Of a stretch of 64,000 nucleotides of DNA, positions 44,796 to 58,732 are shown in pieces. The DNA is taken from NCBI GenBank assembly GCA_977017645.1, contig OZ360222.1:206956001-207020000 (forward strand), in the 5' to 3' direction. The notes below the pieces were generated by a model, which made no database searches, had not been told where the DNA came from, and was given only the letters and a program-made list of their open reading frames with translations. The DNA comes from Torpedo marmorata. Taxonomy: Eukaryota. The stretch's first letter is position 1. Every line of letters starts with the position of its first letter. Made by a program: the position numbers and the translations under genes.

Positions 44796-45099
44796 GGTAA
44801 ACAATTTACCGTATTTGATGGAATATAGGACCCACTGGTATATAGGACCCCCCCCCATTTTTAGCGTGAGATTTCAGGAAAAAATTGTTTTAGTGTATTT
44901 ACCTTCACAGCAGCAACACGTCCTCCTGCTCACCGCACGCCGAGGCTCAGGCTGCTTCCCCCCCACTATCCAAACACTAATTGATTGACAGGTGTGCCGA
45001 GACCTGTGGGCGTGCGAGGGTGGGAGGGAGAGAAGCCAGGAAAATGGGCAGGGCCCAGGCCCACTGTCGCGGGGAGCAGACAATCACTCACTTGCTTTG

Positions 45100-45343
45100 C
45101 TTTGAGGGGAGCACTGGGCCTCGGTGATCAGGCTCAATGCTGAGCCTTTGTTCGACGCGCACAGCCCCCCGAACAGATTGAATAAGGTGCGGGGGCGGGT
45201 GGCAGTGAGCGAGCGGCCTGTCAAGCTCAGCTCAACAGGCCGCTCGCTCACTGCCACCCGCCCCCGCGCCTCATTCAATTTGCTCGTGGGTCTGTGTTCG
45301 TCGAACAAAGCCTGATCATCGAGGCCCAGCACTCCCCTCAAAG
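45100..45343. repeat. About 240-bp imperfect hairpin with a perfect 33-bp core
   Basis: 45189-45221 is the exact reverse complement of 45235-45267 (13-nt loop); the outer arms pair out to ctttgagggga / tcccctcaaag. Confidence 0.9.
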
Positions 45344-45349
45344 TACTGT

Positions 45350-45680
45350 TGGTGAGAGCGAACGAGCGAGCGAGGGCGGGGAGAGCGAGTGGGCGAGGGC
45401 GAGCGAGTGAGATGGCGAGGGCAGATAGTGAGTGGGCGAGGGCAGAGAGCGAGCGGGCGAGGGCGGGGAGCGGGCGGGCGGGGAGAGCGAATGGGCGGGG
45501 AGAAAGTGGGCGAGAGCGAGCGGGCGAGGGCGAGGCGAGCGAGTGGGAGAGAGCGGGCGGACGGAGAGAGCGAGCGGGCGGGCGGGCGGTGAGAGCGGGC
45601 GGGCAGGGAGAAAGCGGGCGAGAGCGAGCAAGCGAGCGGGCGGGCTAGGAGAGCGAACGGGAGGGAGAGAGCGAGCCTTC
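45350..45680. repeat. Purine-rich (GAGC/GGGC)n low-complexity tract
   Basis: Direct reading. Confidence 0.9.
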
Positions 45681-48005
45681 TTACCGGGGGAAGTGAGCGG
45701 TGGCGGCGGCGACTCCGGAAAGCATGGGCCACTCAAGGGAAGGTGGTCCGCGAAGCTGCGGGCCCGCTTCCTGGACTCCACTCGGTGCCCAAAATGGCGG
45801 CACCAAAATGTCACCTTCGCGTATAAGACCCGGGGTCGTTTTTGAGGCGATTTTTTGGGGAAAAAAGGGGGGGTCTTATATGCCGTCAAATACGGTACTC
45901 CCTGCTGGAATGAGTATTGACAGTTGCAATTGTTCCCTTCAGAGTTGGAGAAGCTGAGTATAATTTGCATAAAATAGATTATAAATCTCATTGTTAAACA
46001 GATACTCGGTAAATGCCAGCCCTATGATTATGTAACAATTTAAGTAGGCAAATAATGTCCAAATGTTGCAATAACTTGAATACCTCTTTTGAGGGTTGTT
46101 TTTAATAATATTGATATGCATCATCTGGCAACTTTGTTTTTGTGATCTTTGTGATTCACGTAGCATTTGTTCCTCATCATACATTGATACATTAATAACG
46201 GGGAGCACTATTAAACTCATTTGTATATTTTCACATATATCATCTGCATATCGGAATGGTTTTCAATTAAACTTTTGTACTCATCCTGCTGAAAGATATT
46301 ACCTTGAGGTCTCTGAAATCCTCAGCCTTGTGTTCTCAGCAAGACTGGAAGAGGATGTTGCCATCAGCCAGGTTGTTTACCTGATCTGCTCTTCAGTCAG
46401 CATCAACCACGGAAACCTGACAGTGGACGTTTCATCATGTGGATTCCTCAAGACAAGTGAACTGCCATTTCTGCCAAGAAGGCTGGAGTGCACGTCGATT
46501 CATCCTTGTGAGGGTTGCCTTGATTCAGAGGTGCCTCCTTCAGCAAAGTCCAAGTGATGAGAAAAACCAGAAAGCAGCGGAGAAGGGACAAGGGTGAGGA
46601 AGTTACAGAGGAGGAACATAAGCAGATGGTTGTCTGAGGAGTGCAGCCATCTAGTTGTGATGGTGGATAAAATGTCAGTGCAAATAAAAAGTAGTTGCAA
46701 GTCAAACACCATAACTGCTGAGCTCAGCTGTCCTGAGGTTTAACCTGGACCACTGATTTCCAAGGCTTCATGCTACAGAGTTTAGAGGAGGGCGGAGGAT
46801 GTAATGTAAAGGTACCTTTTCTCCACTTGTCTTTCATTCTGGGGTGGCATTGATATCGCATTCATTTACATTCGTTTCCAGTCTGAAACCATCTCAAATT
46901 TTGTCATTTCGATTTCAAAACTTTCCCAATATCCTTAAACTCATAATGTCTTATCATATCTGTTTTCTGACTCCTTGTGCATTGCCTGATTTATTTATTT
47001 CACAGTTCATATTCATTTGCAAAGCTCTTGACCTTCCTTAACCTCCCTATCATCCTGTACTTCAACAAGTCCCTCCTTAAACAACACCCTTTTCGACCAA
47101 GCTTTTGATATCTGTCATTATTACCTCTTGTCTATAATGCTCCTGTGATGTTTTATTTTGCTGCTGTTGTTATATGAGCAGAGGGTTTTGCAGTAGATAG
47201 ATTTTGGAATTGCAGCTGAAAACTCACCCTCATTTTGATGTAAAAACACAAAGAAACAAGTAACCCGATGGTGTTGACCCAATACTGTTTCCTGTCAGCA
47301 ATGCAGGAAAGAGACAATCGTGGGTGACTCAAAATCTTGTCCCAGCCTTGTGCAACGTGTCTTGTGGAACTGCATGTTTATATTACATGACATGAATGGA
47401 GTACACATCTTATGTGTTATCAAGCAATATTTCCAATCTCGGAAACAACTAAATGTTTGTTAATTTTCTACAGTCCAATCTGATAATCTCCTGTAAAGTT
47501 CTACCTATCCAATGTTATCTATGACTCTCTTAAAGGCATAAAAGTGATAATTCATTCTTGACATGAAAAATTCATTGAATGTGGCAGTGAAGATCCATCT
47601 TTACATAAAAGCCCTGGTGGCCATGCATCAGGAGGAGCTCAGACCTTAGTATCTAATTAAACATCACAAGCGGAAGATTAGGATGATTCATGTCTGACAT
47701 TTATCACGGTGTAGTATTTTTGGTGCTGTATGTTTAGAGGATCACTGATAGGTCAGTATCTAATTTACACTTCAGTATTTGTACAGCTTAGCTAATGTGT
47801 TATCAGTTAAACTCCAGTGATTTTTTTTTAACGTATATTGTCCAATTTTGAATTCCAGGAAATGGTTGTGCTGGAATTTAAAATCCCATGGGCTAAAGTT
47901 TTATCCAAAGAGTGACATCCCCATAAATGCAGCAATCCCTCACTGTTTACTGTCAAGATTGGGTCATTAAGCCATGGAATAAGTTTAAACTTACTACACT
48001 CCTAT

Positions 48006-48256
48006 TGTAATATTACAAAGTTATTCTTTCATTGTTAATGAGTTTGCATTCTCCTCAGATCACCTGACCTCTCTTCCTCCAATCAGCTTCTAGCTGCTGC
48101 CCCGCCCCTTTCTTTTAAACTCTAACGGCTGCCATTAGAATTTGGAATGTGTTGTATGAGCTAAGTAGGTTTTATTTCTCATTTTCAACTGTAACTATAC
48201 AATTAAGTTGAGTAAAGCTTGGAAAACAGTCACCAAGTCTTTTCATTCTCATAACA
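48006..48256 (+). repeat. 5' LTR (251 bp)
   Basis: tgtaatattac...ctcataaca; CCAAT, GC box and tttaaa motifs; differs from the 3' LTR by about 8 substitutions and a 21-bp indel. Confidence 0.95.
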
Positions 48257-48257
48257 A

Positions 48258-48275
48258 TTTACTCAACTTAATTGT
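48258..48275 (+). promoter_or_regulatory. Self-complementary primer-binding site (no tRNA TGG PBS)
   Basis: tttactcaacttaattgt is the exact reverse complement of LTR 48199-48216 acaattaagttgagtaaa. Confidence 0.8.
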
Positions 48276-48280
48276 CAAGC

Positions 48281-51200
48281 ATGGAGACGGTGTGGAGGCC
48301 CAAGTACTTAGACATCGACCCCAGCTCACCAACAGCTGCCAAGGAGTGGTGACACTGGCGTATGACTTTCATGAACTACGTCGACGACTATAGGGACAAG
48401 ATACCGAACAAGTACAGAACACTGTGTGAGCTGCAATGTTTTCGAATACATAGAAGGATGTGAAAATTTTGACTCAGCTATCTCTAAGTTGGACAGTTTA
48501 TATATGAAAACTCCCAATGAGGTTTTTGCCAGACATTTACTGGCTACCAGGCAGCAGAAGCCAGGAGAATCATTAGCTGATTTCTTCAGGGAGTTGGAAA
48601 AGTTAAAGAGAAACTGTAATTTTCGAGATCATAGTACAGAGCAGTGTGGTAACGAGGCAATGTGTTACACGTTCATCGCTGGCATTGCCTCACCTGCAAT
48701 ACGCCAGCGTCTCTTAGAAAACAAAACACTGGATTTACAGACTGCTTATAACCAAGCTACTGTGTTAGACGTAGCTCAATGCACTAATGATGCATACGCT
48801 ACCCCGGCAGCCCATACAGCTGTAGTAGTGAACCCTGAACCACCACAGGTACCACAGGTGTGTGAGAAGGATTCTTTAGCAGGGCTGCCTGATAACCTTC
48901 CAGTTGCTCTTGAGAAACCAGCTGTGGCTGTCACTTATAATACAAAACGGAAATGTTTCTTCTGTGGTTTCTCTTACCATTCACGGGATAACTGTCCAGC
49001 CCACGAGGCTACTTGTAATAAATGTGCCAAGAAGGGACATTATGCCCAGGTGTGCAAATCCAAGGCCTCACCAAGCTCAGTGGCAACAGTGGTCAATTCT
49101 CATGTACTGGCTACACTTATTAATGTGCCACAAGGACTCGCTCAAGCTGCAATCTTTGTGACTGTGAATGGTAAAAGGTTAAGTGCTCTGTTGGATTCAT
49201 GCAGCACTGATAGTTACATTAGCGAGAAAGTCACGCGGGAACTAAAACGAAAGGTTCACCCATCCAGTAAAGACATTACTACGGCTCAGAAAACTTTAAA
49301 CACTAGTTCCCAAGGATATCTTGTTGTTGACCTAACTCTTAGTCTTAATAGCCAGTCATACGCTGCCACACGACTTGATGTATTGAAGGACCTATGTTCT
49401 GACTTAATACTTGGCCAGGATTTCCAGCGCCAGCATCTGAATGTGAAATTTGAATACGGAGGACCCTTGTCTGAGCTAACTGTGAATGGTGCTGACCATT
49501 ACTGTGCACTGACAGCAGCAAAAATAGAAGAGCCTTCCCTTTTTCCAAACTTATCACCAAGCTGTAAACCAATTGCTACCAAATCAAGACGCTTTAGCAA
49601 AGATGATCAGCACTTCATTGCAGAGGAAATTCGCCAATTACTTTCAGAAGGCATAATTGAGACGAGCATATCACCATGGCGAGCCCAAGTGGTAGTGGTG
49701 AAGGATCCTACCCACCAACACAAGAAGCGAATGTGTGTGGATTATTCACAGACAATCATTCAATACACAGAATTGGATGCTTACCCCTTGCCAAGGATTG
49801 ACAAAATGGTGAACGAACTTGCAAAATATAGTGTTCTCTACCTGCGACCTGAAAAGTGCCTACCACCAAGTGTCACTGAAGGAGTCAGATAAGAAGTATA
49901 CGGCTTTTGAAGCCAATGGACGTTTATACCAATTTTGTAGGATTCTATTTGGAGTCACAAATGGGGTAGCCGCCTTCCAGCGTGCTATGGACAAGTTAGT
50001 TAGAGAAGAAAAACTGCAAGGTGCCTTCCCTTACCTTGATAATATCACTATTGCTGGACATACACAAGAGGGACATGATCAAAATATAACGAAATTCCTA
50101 AAGACCATCAGTCAGAGACACCTAACACTTATTGATTCATAGACTGTGGAGTCTGTGAATTCCATTAATGTCCTTGGGTACTGTGTGGGGAATGGTATCA
50201 TTAAGCCAGATCCTGAGAGACTTCGCCCACTACAAGAGCTTCCTCCACCAGAAAATTTGCGATCCTTAAAAAGGGTACTCGGGATGTTTGCTTATTATGC
50301 CAAATGGATTCATGGGTTTTCCAACAAGATTCAACCGATGGTAAATACAGAGAAGTTTCCAATGGAGGAAACGGCCCTGAACGCCTTTAACTTACTAAAG
50401 AGAGAGTTTGAGGAAGCCACCCTGCACTCGGTGGATGAAAACTTACCCTTTGAGGTAGAGTGTGACGCATCTGATGTGGCTATTTCTGCTGTCCTTAACC
50501 AAGGAGGACGGCCTGTTGCATTCATGTCAAAGACGCTACAAGGAAGTGAATTGCACTACCACATTGTAGAGAAAGAAGTGACTGCCATCATTGAGGCAGT
50601 GCGCAAATGGAGCCACTTTAGCTTGGTTACTGATCAGAAGTCAGTGGCCTTTATGTTTGACAGTAAAAAGCGTACAAAGATAAAGAACGCAAAGATTCAA
50701 GAATGGCGGCTGGAACTTGCAGCATTTAGTTACACAATAAAGTACCGTCCTCGGAAAGAGAATGTGGTCCCTGACGCATTTAGTCGGGCGTACACTTGTT
50801 CAGCCTTTACTACCTCCACACTCGCTGACATTCACAACGGACTTTGTCGTCCAGGAATAACTCGGCTGCTGCATTTTGTTAGAGCAAAGAATTTCTACTT
50901 TTCTACAGAAGATGTCAAGAAGACTTGTACTTTATGCAGGGTCTGTGCTGAACTAAAGCCTCAATTCTACCACCCACCAGGAGGGACTCTTATCAAAACA
51001 ACAAAACCTATGAAACGGCTTAGTATTGATTTCAAGGGACCTTTGCCACAGCTTCGCATAACCCATATCTACTTACAGTAGTTGATGAATACTCGCATTT
51101 CCCCTTTGCCTTTCCATGTCCCAATATGCATACTACAACAGTGATCAGATGCCTGGATCTGCTATTTAGCCTATGCGGAATGCCAAATTACATACACTCT

Positions 51201-51866
51201 GATCGAGGCACCACCTTCGTGTCTAAGGATCTGAAAGATTATCTCTCCCAGAAGGGGGTTGCCACAAGTCATACTACCCCATACCACCCAATCGGGAATG
51301 GACAGGTAGAGAGTTTCAACGGCATCATATGGAAGGCAGTCCATTTGGCCCTTAGATCACGTAACTTGCCCGAGAAGCATTGGGAACTGGTGCTTCCTGA
51401 GGTACTACACTCCCAAAGATCGCTGTTGTGTGCAGCAAGAAATACTACACCCCATGAAAGTTTTTTTGCATTCCAACGCCGCTCATCCCATGGAAATTCA
51501 CTGCCCTCCTGGCTAATGACCCCTGGACCCATACTACTAAGAAGGTTTGTGAGGAGTAACAAGAACGAACCACTTGTAGATCAAGTTGAACTCCTTGACA
51601 GTAATCCAACATATGCAAACATCAGGTACCCAGATGGACGGGAGTCTACTGTGTCTGTTCGTGAATTGGCACCTTGTCCAGAAGCCCAGGCAATCCCCAC
51701 ATCTCCTATTGTGGAACAAGATAAACGAAATCTGGTAGTACCAATACGAGAGGAGGAGGAAGATATGACATACCATAGTGTGGAGGATGATGAAACAGTC
51801 GCTCCACAAGAACTAAGGAGATCCGGTCATGTATCAAAACCTCCCAATCGATATGGATGGGAGTAG
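48281..51866 (+). pseudogene. gag-pol polyprotein pseudogene (Gag with two Zn knuckles, protease, RT, RNase H, integrase), disrupted by stops and frameshifts
   Basis: METVWRPKYLDIDPSSPTAAKEW*; CFFCGFSYHSRDNC and CNKCAKKGHYAQVC; ALLDSCS; LDAYPLPRI, YLDN; ECDASD, EKE; IHSDRGTTF, GNGQVESFNG; no chromodomain or env. Confidence 0.93.
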
Positions 51867-51910
51867 TCCCGTAAATTGTTGCTTGATACTGCTAGTGTTT
51901 TATTTTTTTT

Positions 51911-51922
51911 AGGAGGGAAGAA
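51911..51922 (+). promoter_or_regulatory. Polypurine tract
   Basis: aggagggaagaa abutting the 3' LTR, preceded by a T-run. Confidence 0.9.
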
Positions 51923-52152
51923 TGTAATATTACAAAGTTATTCTTTAATTGCTAATGAGCTTGCATTCTCCTCAGGTCACCTGACCTCTCTTCCTCCAAT
52001 CAGCTTCTAGCTGCTGCCCCACCCCTTTCTTTTAAATTTGGAATGTGTTGTATGAGCTAAGTAGTTTTTATTTCTCATTTTCAACTGTAAATATACAATT
52101 AAGTTGAGTAAAGCTTGGAAAACAGTCACCAAGTCTTTTCATTCTCACAACA
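51923..52152 (+). repeat. 3' LTR (230 bp)
   Basis: tgtaatattac...ctcacaaca followed by the TSD cctat. Confidence 0.95.
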
Positions 52153-52339
52153 CCTATTTAAAACAAAAAAAATCATTTAGACAAGCCTTGTTTTCCAAAG
52201 CACTAGCTTGCACTTTCAATGTAGATTTTTCATTTCTAATTAATTAAATAAACAAATGGGTGTAATGATAAAAAAAACACAGACTATTTACCATGAACAT
52301 AATTATAATTTCCTGGATACGCTCACTAGATGGCAGTTA

Positions 52340-55300
52340 TGGGAGGCGGCGCGACGTAGCACGCAGCGGCCTCTCCAAGACCGTTTGTTTATTTTTATTT
52401 TTTAGTTATATAGCGTTAAATAGTGTGTCTAATTTTTTATAAAACACATGTAATATGGTTACCCAACGCAACTACAACCTCCAGTATTTAATGATATTCA
52501 GAAACTCCTCTACTTACCTCCGGGAAGGTCTGCGGGTCAAGCTACGCGACCACGGGCTGTTGCGGGGACTAGGCCTTACGGCCTCGGGATTGCGGAGAAG
52601 ACGGAAGCGGTGCGTGAGGTGGAGGAAGCGCGGTAAGCGAGCAGGGGTTCGCGCTAGGCTGAGAGCGAACCCCTGCCGCCCGGCTCTCCAGTCCATCCTG
52701 CTCGCCAATGTCTGTTCCCTGGAGAACAAAATGGACCACATCCGACTCCAGAGGTCTGCGTAGCGTGAGTACAGGGACTGCTGTGTTTTGGTCTTCACTG
52801 AAACGTGGCTCAGCGACAGAGTCCCGGACGCCGCCATTTAGCTGGATGGGCTCACTTTATTTCTGGCTGACAGAGATGCTGCTCTGAGTGGTAAAGTCCG
52901 AGGCGGTGGCTTGTGTGTTTACATCAACACAGAATGGTGTAAGGACTCTGTATTATTCTCCAGTCACTGCTCAGCACTGGTGGAATTTGTGACTGTCAGA
53001 TGTAGACCATTTTATCTACCGTGGGAATTCACCACGGTCCTCATAGTTGGAGAGTTCATCCCCCCCAGCACTTACGCTAAGGAGGCGATCTTGGAACTGT
53101 ATGGGGCTATAAGCGAACTGCAGACCACACACCCTGTTGGACTGTTTATTATCGCTTGGGATTTCAACCAGGCGAACCTCAAGTCAAGGCTATCTATATT
53201 TCATCAGTATGTGGACTTTGCTACGAGAGGGACGAACGCGTTGGACCTTGTGTTTACGAACATTTCCGACGCGTATCGGGCAGAGCCCCGCCCCCCACCT
53301 CGGATACTCAGACCATATCTCTGTAATACTAACCCCAGCATACAGACTGCTCATCAGACGCTCCAGACCAGTTCTGAAGCAGGTTTAAACCTGGCCAGCG
53401 GGAGCCATCCATGCACTTCAGGACTGCTTCGAGCGCACTGACTGGCACATGTTCAAGGAAGCAGCAACCGATGGAGACTGCATCAATCTGGAGGAGTATA
53501 CGGCATCAGTGACTAGCTACATTAGTAAGTGTACTGACGAAGTCACTGTGCCCAAGACCATCATTACTCGCTCTAATCAGAAGCCATGGATGACTGTGGA
53601 GATGTGTGTGCTGCTGAGGAGCCGAGACTCTGCCTTCCGAGTGGGCGACAAGGTAGCCCTAGCTATTGTGAGAGCCAAGCTGTCTTAAACCATCAGGGAG
53701 GCAAAGCGTGTGCATGCCCAGTGAATTCATAGTCACTTTCAGGACAGCAAGGACACGCAACGCATGTGGAAGGGCATTCAAGATATCACCAACCACAAGA
53801 CCACACCATCTGCCTGTGCTGGTGATGCCTCCCTCCCAGATGCACTGAACAACTTCTACGTGCGTTTTGAGGCGAAAAATGATGTGGTGGCGAAGAAGAC
53901 CACCTCTCTAAATGATCAGGTGCCATGTCTTACAGTGGCCAATGAGAGTGTTAGGCAAGGTCGACCCACAGAAAGCTGCTGGTCCGGATAACATTCCCGG
54001 CAGAATGCTCAGGGGATGTGTAGCTCAGCTGGCAGATGTTCTCACCGACATCTTTAACATCTCCCTGAGCAGCGCCGTGGTTCCAACGTGCTTCAAAGCC
54101 GCCACCATTGTTCCCGTGCCGAAGAAGTCATCAGTGTCCTGCCTCAATGACTACCGCCCTGTCGCACTCACGTCTATCGTCATGAAGTGCTTCGAGAGTC
54201 TCGTCATGGGGCACATCAAGCTCTTGCTGCCCCCCTCACTGGACCCCCTGCAGTTCGCATATAGATCCAACTGCTCTACGGACGATGCCATCGCCACTAC
54301 CCTCCATCTAGCCCTCACCCACCTGGAAAATAAGGACACGTATGTTCAAATGTTGTTTATTGACTTCAGTTCGGCATTCAACACAATCATACCTCAGTAC
54401 TTGATAGGGAAGTTGAGCCTGCTTGGCCTAAACACCTCCCTCTGCATTTGGATTCTTGACTTCCTGACGGGGAAACCTCAGGCAGTCCGGATCGGAAACA
54501 GCACTTTCAAGACCATTACACTGAGCACAGGCCCCCCCCCCCAGGGCTGTGTGCTTAGTCCATTGCTGTTCACTCTGCTGACTCATGACTGTGCAGCAAA
54601 ACACAGCTCGCACCACATCATCAAGTTCGCTGACGATACGACTCGTCTTATCAGCAAGAACGATGAGTCAGCGTACAGAGATGAGGTGCAGTCGCTAATG
54701 GACTGGTGCAGAGCCAACAACCTGCATCTGAATGTTAATGAAACAAAAGAGATGGTTGTCGACTTCAGGAAGGCCCGGGGGGATCACTCTGTTTCTTGGT
54801 GTGCACTTGGCAGAGAATCTCACCTGGTCCCTCAACACCAGCTCCATAGCCAAGAAAGCCCAGCAGCGCCTCTACTTCCTGCGAAGGCTTAGGAAAGTTC
54901 ATCTCCCACCCTCCATCCTCACTACATTCTACAAAGGATGTATTGAGAGCATTCTGAGCTATTGCATCACTGCCTGGTTTGGAAACTGTACTATCTCAGA
55001 CCGTAAGACCCTGCAGAGGATAGTGGAGTCAGCGGAGAAGATCATTGGGGTCTCTCTTCCTACCATGACGGACATCTACAACACACGATGCATGCGGAAG
55101 GCAAATAATATTGTGAAGGACTTCTCACACCCCTCTTGTAAACTTTTCTCCCTTCTGTCGTCTGGAAGGAGGTACCGTAGCATTCGGGCCCTCACGTCCA
55201 GATTGTGCAAAAGTTTTTTCCCCCAAGTCATGATGCTCCTCAATTCCTAGAACATATGTGTACTAGTATATCATGGATTTTTATTGTATTATGACTTAAT

Positions 55301-57370: not shown

Positions 57371-57667
57371 ATTGTTTTCCAGAAGATGGTAACCAGGCCT
57401 TGGACTGAAGCTGAAAGAGCAAAAATTATGTTAAAGGAGAATGCATTATTCAGATTTGGGGGGGGGGGGATTGTGCAGGATTTCCAAAGACTTTGATGTT
57501 TTTGAGTGGGAATGTGGTGTAATATGGAATGCAGAGGGCACGGAGTGTACAAAATGAGGGATTCTCTGCTTTGATATTTAGAACTCTAGAATAATCGGAG
57601 ATTATGCAGTTCAGAGGAGGAGGCGAGAAGGCATCTCCAATGTCATTACCTTGTGGATTAAGTTTTC
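57371..57667 (+). repeat. About 300-bp direct repeat, copy 1 (copy 2 at 58432-58732)
   Basis: attgttttccagaag...gtggattaagttttc occurs on both sides of an L1 fragment with few differences. Confidence 0.92.
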
Positions 57668-58431
57668 TTTTTAAAAAAAATATATTTTATTTTCATTTTT
57701 AACAAACAATAAAACAAAATACTTCAAAAACAGATATCACATTATATAGTAATACAATAAAAGTAACATACCGGTATATAATAAAAAAAAACCCAATTAT
57801 CCCAAACCTCCCCCCCCCCAAAGAAAACAAAATACGAAACAAAACAAATGGTCGACAATGTTTATATAATTACTAATTTCAAATATATAAAAGAAAGAAA
57901 AACTCCAAAGCTTCCCGGCAACAGGGCTTATCGCGTGAAGGAACCCAAAACAAATTAATAGCAAATCTTCTTTGATTTAATTTATCCTGACCCCAAATAA
58001 TCTAAATAAGGTTGCCAAATTTTATAAAAAATAACCTGTTTGTTTTTAATGTTCTACGTAATTTTCTCCAATGGAATACACTACGGTATTTATTTCTGAG
58101 GTCCATCTATCAATAGACAATGGGGAATCTGACTTCCAAGTAGTCATTAAACACTTTCTTGCCACACAAAAAGCTATTCCCAAAAATATAATTTGATATC
58201 TGGTTAAGGTGTCCTTAATAGTAGTAAAATTTCCCAAAAGGCATATCTCTGGATCTAAAATTAGAGTAACTCCAATAACTTTAGATAAGATGTCACAGAG
58301 ATTATGCCAAAATTGTCTCAACTTACAGCACATCCATGTTGAATGTAAAAAAGAACCAACCTCCGTTCCACATCTAAAACACATCTCTGATAATTCTGGT
58401 TTAAATTTATGTGATTTCTGTGGAGTCAAAT
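57668..58431 (-). mobile_element. L1-clade LINE 3' fragment
   Basis: Minus ORF 58046-58486 YLTPQKSHKFKPELSEMCFRCGTEVGSFLHSTWMC...LDPEICLLG; AATAAA/A-rich tail at the 57668 side. Confidence 0.88.
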
Positions 58432-58732
58432 ATTGTTTTCCAGAAGGTGGTAACCAGGCCTTGGTCTGAAGCTGAAAGAGCAACAATTACGTTAAAGGAG
58501 AATGCATTATTCAGATTTGGGGGGGGGGGGGGAACTGTGCAGGATTTCCAAAGACTTTGATGTTTTTGCAGTGGGAATGTGGTGTAATATGGAATGCAGA
58601 GGGCACGGAGTGTACAAAATGAGGGATTCTCTGCTTTGATATTTAGAACTCTAGAATAATCGGAGATTATGCAGTTCAGAGGAGGAGGCGAGAAAGCATC
58701 TCCAATGTGATTACCTCGTGGATTAAGTTTTC
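58432..58732 (+). repeat. About 300-bp direct repeat, copy 2
   Basis: Matches 57371-57667. Confidence 0.92.

Follow-up and report, generated by a model that had tools for sequence, protein, structure and literature searches.

The window, a 64,000-nucleotide stretch of Torpedo marmorata DNA, contains a broken member of a Ty3/Gypsy family that is present in high copy number (Table 1). Pfam searches of its open reading frames recovered protease, reverse transcriptase (RT), RNase H, and integrase in that order, and this order, together with the paired TG...CA long terminal repeats (LTRs), a short target-site duplication, and a polypurine tract, assigns the element to Ty3/Gypsy. The translations also include two CX2CX4HX4C knuckles in gag and the integrase peptide quoted in the original prediction, which had been made from the letters of the window and had described a double-CCHC Gag and no chromodomain. 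Pfam detected no chromodomain in the window element, and none was found in any of 35 aligned relatives. Between the two LTRs there are 8 differences in 230 aligned bases, and 21 bases just past the TTTAAA motif of the 5' LTR are missing from the 3' LTR (51923-52152). The RT catalytic motif, at 50050-50070, is YLDN and not YxDD, as it also is in five of five relatives (P0001, P0002, P0014, P0024, and P0068); the sister locus L103 has YLDD.

Table 1. Features of the Ty3/Gypsy copy, in window coordinates
Feature	Position	Strand	Description
Whole element	48006-52152	+	Decayed Ty3/Gypsy copy
Left target-site duplication	48001-48005		CCTAT
5' LTR	48006-48256	+	251 bp, TG...CA
CCAAT, GC-box, and TTTAAA motifs	48079-48119	+	Candidate promoter; not lineage-wide
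LTR arm	48199-48216	+	Complement of the PBS; predicted self-primer
LTR arm, maintained part	48201-48216	+	
LTR arm, lineage-wide core	48204-48216	+	
AGTAAA hexamer	48211-48216	+	Poly(A)-signal type, at the 3' end of the arm; putative function
Hairpin	48217-48238	+	6 bp; begins at the first base past the arm
Primer-binding site (PBS)	48258-48275	+	One base beyond the LTR end, without TGG; complements 48199-48216
gag-pol remains	48281-51866	+	Single frame, interrupted by stops and frameshifts
Polypurine tract	51911-51922	+	Adjoins the 3' LTR
3' LTR	51923-52152	+	230 bp; has arm and hairpin, no PBS partner downstream
Right target-site duplication	52153-52157		CCTAT

The lineage is very abundant in the Torpedo marmorata genome. 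A DNA search returned 1,507 candidates; the 40 that were scored had identities of 95-100%, and at least 359 copies fit the exact LTR-PBS junction pattern. When a distant Gag was used as the query for other families of the lineage in this genome, the window family was the only one found among the 30 loci read.

The 3' end of a mature tRNA is CCA, so the PBS of a tRNA-primed element opens with TGG. As the original prediction had noticed, the 5' LTR ends at its CA without being followed by such a start; the first TGG past the LTR does not come until the gag ATG at 48281, with which it overlaps, and because none adjoins the LTR, no mature tRNA 3' end fits the PBS. What lies there, after a single spacer base (48257), is an exact reverse complement (18/18) of the LTR arm, separated from it by a 41-nt loop. 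The small stem that had also been noticed within this loop is present and extends to 6 bp (48217-48222 with 48233-48238). The predicted fold of 48201-48295 gave z = -2.95, with none of 200 shuffles as good, and that of the longer segment 48130-48300 gave z = -2.0.

Conservation of the LTR arm-PBS duplex

Other perfect inverted repeats of 12-33 bp occur in the window, and the complementarity could in principle be a coincidence or stem from a local duplication restricted to this copy. We give this a negligible probability, as the 30 closest copies in the host genome all retain at least 16 of the pairs (18/18 in 23 copies, 17 in five, and 16 in two) and 21 other families have the duplex with differing sequences.

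These families come from related DNA drawn from metagenome and genome collections. Full-length relatives of ~1,200 aa, most of them 1,150-1,250 aa, are present in crustaceans, tunicates, and cnidarians; the viral_contigs collection yielded no relative. Some animal-type Gypsy elements (L101, L102, L104-L109, and L111) are on contigs filed under bacterial genome bins, and these labels probably reflect contamination by host-animal DNA. In all, 78 related loci were examined, the gag start was present in 35, and the 31 with at least 150 nt upstream made up the testable set. A perfect inverted repeat of 10-19 bp was found in 30 of the 31 loci, the exception being L074 with a run of 7 (11/13 pairs), and 29 loci exceeded all 30 of their shuffles (shuffle means of 5.9-7.2). 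SH3_Tf2-1 matches retrieved in the host were mostly integrase-first elements with a TGG-type PBS and served as controls; across ten TGG-type controls (nine integrase-first elements from the host plus L111), the best LTR-PBS repeat was 4-7 nt.

For column-by-column comparison, we used 22 families with one representative each, the window included and 10 near-duplicates omitted; LTR ends were anchored by a 3' LTR in 10 of them. The PBS begins one base after the CA in 21 of the 22, and the loop ranges from 24 to 68 nt. Over the 13 PBS-proximal pairs, 280 of 286 are Watson-Crick, six are mismatches, and none is G-U. Columns 5-9, 12, and 13 are paired in 20-22 families versus 9-14 expected, with 0 of 5,000 permutations as high, although such permutation values overstate significance because the families are related and do not represent independent events. 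Pairs 14 and 16 are likewise above the permutation expectation (16 versus 10.6 and 14 versus 7.5, respectively), pair 15 is borderline (12 versus 8.8), and pairing is at background from pair 17 onward. Each PBS matches its own arm at an average of 11.8 of the first 12 positions, compared with 8.4 for the arms of other families. In addition, L035 and L040, which are 98.9% identical, are distinguished by a paired double change at pair 7, found in both LTRs of L035 as well as in its PBS. Compensatory change between PBS and LTR, to which the original prediction had looked for support, is thus present among related families, and arm-PBS pairing is a feature of the whole lineage.

The duplex does not extend evenly over all 18 pairs, nor is every change in it compensated. 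A host subfamily has A at PBS position 17 and keeps the LTR C in 61 of 63 copies, which gives a mismatch, so pairs 17 and 18 are not maintained. The 18-bp pairing is real in the window copy, but the family maintains only 16 of the 18 pairs. LTR pair 5 is changed in six host copies and compensated in none of them, and L034 has a PBS change without compensation. These changes are compatible with decay after insertion and lend no support to pairing. Another host copy, L185, carries a short inverted duplication of the PBS directly after the PBS, resembling a local template switch at the palindromic end of the PBS.

A stem of at least 4 bp begins at the first base past the arm in 17 of 22 families. 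The expectation from shuffled loops was 10.5 (2 of 1,000 reached the observed count) and fell to 6.4 when the first four bases were held constant (0 of 1,000), but the position is less sharp than these shuffles suggest, because offsets of 3 and 4 still give stems in 14 and 15 families. G-U pairs are tolerated in this adjoining stem (15 of 79), so their complete lack in the main duplex points to copying and not just to structure.

In 16 of the 22 families, the last six bases of the arm are AATAAA, ATTAAA, or AGTAAA, and in most families pairing probably conceals the 5' copy of this poly(A) hexamer as well. Since the pairing partner exists only after the 5' LTR, it might be argued that hiding the 5' LTR poly(A) signal is all that the duplex does and that priming depends on something else. 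This is unlikely. The duplex is kept although six families have no arm-end hexamer and, in L038 and L042, a canonical hexamer lies outside it instead; occlusion needs neither the fixed one-base register nor the absence of G-U, and the element would be left with no primer at all.

The CCAAT, GC-box, and TTTAAA motifs from which the original prediction had suggested a transcription start near 48140, with the primer possibly internal to R, are indeed in the window. They lie ~100-140 bases upstream of the arm end in the window family, and among 30 close copies they persist in 30, 25, and 29, respectively. Across the 22 families, however, there is no TATA-like motif at a fixed distance from the arm, and the proposed start is so far unsupported; the sharp end of pairing at pair 16 fits a primer at the RNA 5' end at least as well. 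In Logan contigs assembled from seven runs, some loose ends were suggestive of shorter LTR variants in which a TATA-like motif sat close to the arm, an idea that was dropped as the host genome held no amplified form of such a variant (7 matches, mostly point changes).

Comparison with tRNAs and placement of the lineage

The original prediction had also considered that a host tRNA, or a piece of one, might match the PBS as well as the LTR does. Among the 3' ends of 28 host tRNA sequences of nine isotypes, the best duplex reached -7.7 kcal/mol, versus -22.7 kcal/mol for the LTR arm. Within the same nine isotypes, an internal segment, the D-arm of tRNA-Thr, gave a partial match that was weaker than the LTR in all 22 families.

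This partial match was unexpected. When the arm is extended by two bases, the best tRNA match falls at the same tRNA-Thr D-arm position in 18 of 22 families (11-14 of 15 bases), and the summed identity is 250 versus 175 by column permutation, with 0 of 20,000 permutations as high, or 93 of 20,000 when the last six, A-rich columns are fixed; the test was post hoc and covered nine isotypes. In the window, the likeness to host tRNA-Thr genes of the L226 type spans 48204-48218 (12 of 15 bases), and in L068 it reaches 14 of 15. It is conceivable that the primer, either now or as a back-up, is a 5' piece of host tRNA-Thr that stops in the D-arm, and that the LTR arm is its relic or mimic. We find this quite unlikely. 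The LTR arm pairs better than the tRNA-Thr segment in every family. For the window PBS, the LTR offers 13 Watson-Crick pairs and tRNA-Thr 10 (-14.3 versus -5.5 kcal/mol); in L039, L068, and L107, the tRNA-Thr segment pairs almost as well as the arm. The PBS also tracks changes in the LTR and not the invariant tRNA, and dihydrouridines in the D-loop would weaken pairing with tRNA-Thr. Furthermore, when the whole genome was searched by pattern for a 10-nt wobble match lying upstream of a T-loop, 12 matches were obtained, one of them a divergent tRNA-Thr gene. The resemblance could be due to ancestry, or it could be a chance product of an initiator-like motif next to a poly(A) signal.

The lineage falls outside the chromoviruses, as represented by proxies. 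The tree was an unrooted RT-RNase H tree of 75 rows from a quick search with SH-aLRT support only. In it the lineage forms one branch (SH-aLRT 96, or 100 with L103) apart from 16 chromodomain-bearing proteins, which included fish P0166 and the sister row P0147 and stood in for Tf1 and sushi themselves, and apart from Mag-like and integrase-first elements. Loci L131, L148, and L149 and proteins P0158 and P0238 were excluded for short coverage. In a 30-row AU test, joining the lineage to the fungal and fish proxy pair P0147 and P0166 was rejected (p-AU 0.011). With respect to these proxies, the earlier view that the element does not belong with Tf1/sushi is borne out. The host genome itself had 15 chromodomain matches, none of them beside an integrase.

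Elements of the Mag lineage of Ty3/Gypsy have two CCHC knuckles in Gag and no chromodomain, and our lineage resembles them in both respects. Mag membership was nevertheless rejected, as four host elements that are presumably Mag-like by their RT motif (L151, L154, L156, and L162) form a separate branch and RT identity is ~27-32%. Another candidate is Cigr-1, reported by Simmen and Bird in 2000 and said to have 245-bp LTRs and one 3,630-bp ORF (~1,210 codons); in comparison, the window LTR is 251 bp and the single polyproteins of the lineage are ~1,200 aa. This likeness in size suggests that the lineage possibly belongs to the Cigr-1 clade, and no Ciona-named match appeared among the 120 matches listed in each of two protein searches. 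The clade is known from Ciona intestinalis and has also been reported in molluscs and annelids. The accessible portions of two papers list it within Ty3/Gypsy and say nothing of its primer (PMC6238403, PMC8556966). "Selgy" and "Smaug", considered as names for the lineage, turned out to be unrelated or uninformative, and the protein atlas offered generic names only.

A proposed model of self-priming and its relation to known systems

Taken together, these observations make it likely that a non-chromoviral Ty3/Gypsy lineage primes itself much as Tf1 does, with the PBS paired to a segment of its own 5' LTR. The RNA would fold back and bring 48201-48216 (13-16 nt) into a duplex with the PBS, and the element's own RNase H would cleave it at 48216/48217 or immediately beside this point, at the junction between the duplex and the small hairpin. 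RT would then extend the new 3'-OH through U5 and the remainder of R. The resulting strong-stop DNA of ~40 nt would transfer by way of the ~20 nt that remain from the cut to the poly(A) site, and during plus-strand synthesis the retained primer would serve as template for a renewed PBS.

Such re-copying would explain both the purely Watson-Crick duplex and the paired change between near-identical copies, and it would put the 5' end of the primer where pairing stops, 13-16 nt from the cut. The working primer is probably 13-16 nt long, since excess pairing stops at pair 16 and the host subfamily breaks pair 17. The constant start of the PBS one base past the CA is the place where the 3' end of such a primer would have to sit. 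We lean toward a primer made of the first bases of the RNA, with transcription starting near 48201-48204. This start is favored over 48140 because a long 5' tail would also be copied unless it were removed. The arrangement in the original prediction, with the primer internal to the RNA, seems to us somewhat less probable, though a serious contender.

Complementarity alone cannot separate pairing in cis from pairing in trans, and the arm might be supplied by a second packaged RNA or by a short transcript ending near the hexamer, since short RNAs might arise where a hexamer of the poly(A) type closes the arm. This is very unlikely. A loop of 24-68 nt favors intramolecular folding and the predicted fold forms readily, while a polyadenylated short RNA would need a further cut in order to end at the arm.

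Self-priming of this kind has precedents. According to the accessible portions of published accounts, the PBS of Tf1 and Tf2 (Schizosaccharomyces pombe), of Tj1 (S. japonicus), and of Tf1/sushi elements complements the element's own 5' LTR, which is predicted to be cut and extended (PMC5341516, PMC4600332, 10.1101/2022.12.06.519325); in Tf1, the 5' end of the RNA serves as primer, and roughly half of the cDNA has a copied PBS (10.1101/2022.12.06.519325, PMC11042837). The lineage described here is like Tf1/sushi in that its PBS complements its own 5' LTR and not a tRNA. It differs in lacking a chromodomain (35/35), in occupying a separate RT-RNase H branch, and in having a double-CCHC Gag. The Tf1 primer is 11 nt long, whereas that of the lineage is predicted to be 13-16 nt and ends in a poly(A)-type hexamer. 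The layouts of the RNA may also differ: Tf1 has a demonstrated three-duplex pretzel, while the lineage has one stem right after the primer (17/22 families), stems adjacent to the PBS having been viewed by eye in the window copy only.

It is plausible that self-priming in this lineage arose independently of Tf1. A more specific, and doubtful, scenario is that the lineage took into its LTR a copy of a tRNA-Thr D-arm that had once been its primer, that its self-priming arose independently of Tf1 in this way, and that the resulting 13-16 nt piece now serves as self-primer, transcript start, and poly(A) signal at once, re-copied in each cycle. If this were true, the D-arm capture would be a visible transition from priming by a tRNA fragment to self-priming.

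Self-priming has also been predicted from LTR-PBS complementarity for TAR (Houba/Osr-1) elements of Ty1/copia and for Tcn1 in the accessible part of a study of plants (PMC6317226), and TAR shows that it is found beyond the chromoviruses. The lineage is like TAR in being outside the chromoviruses, but TAR is a copia group, Tcn1 is chromoviral, and both are plant lineages unrelated to the animal lineage. Within Ty3/Gypsy, the accessible literature describes self-priming for Tf1/sushi-type chromoviruses only. Its open full-text portion, exclusive of subscription papers and Repbase, contains no account of self-priming in a non-chromoviral animal Gypsy element (including PMC3601003, PMC6934838, PMC7472051, PMC3670739, and PMC13524379). 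It is quite possible that an earlier description of self-priming in this lineage exists. Repbase may hold entries for self-primed animal Gypsy families.

If the model is correct, a widespread animal lineage primes itself with an RT and an RNA layout distinct from those of the Tf1/sushi type, and it would provide a second system in which to ask how RNase H cuts an RNA-RNA duplex. The lineage would also escape the silencing in which tRNA 3' fragments target the PBS. A self-complementary PBS explains, too, why annotation based on the PBS misses such elements.

The host and the window contain other mobile elements as well. Loci L131-L146 represent an abundant host Gypsy family in which integrase precedes RT (Gmr1-like), with LTRs of ~860-900 bp and a TGG-type PBS, presumably of the tRNA-Pro type. 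Within the window, 44807-45897 is bounded by 27-bp terminal inverted repeats (44807-44833 and 45871-45897) that enclose a long imperfect palindrome (45124-45332) and a G-rich repeat tract, and it looks like a non-autonomous DNA transposon. A broken non-LTR retrotransposon with endonuclease-like and RT-like frames, which we take from its motifs to be Rex1/Babar-like, occupies 52443-55250 on the plus strand. Finally, at 57371-58732 on the minus strand, a tandem duplication of ~300 bp, with a spacing of ~1,060 bp, lies within an L1-like fragment.
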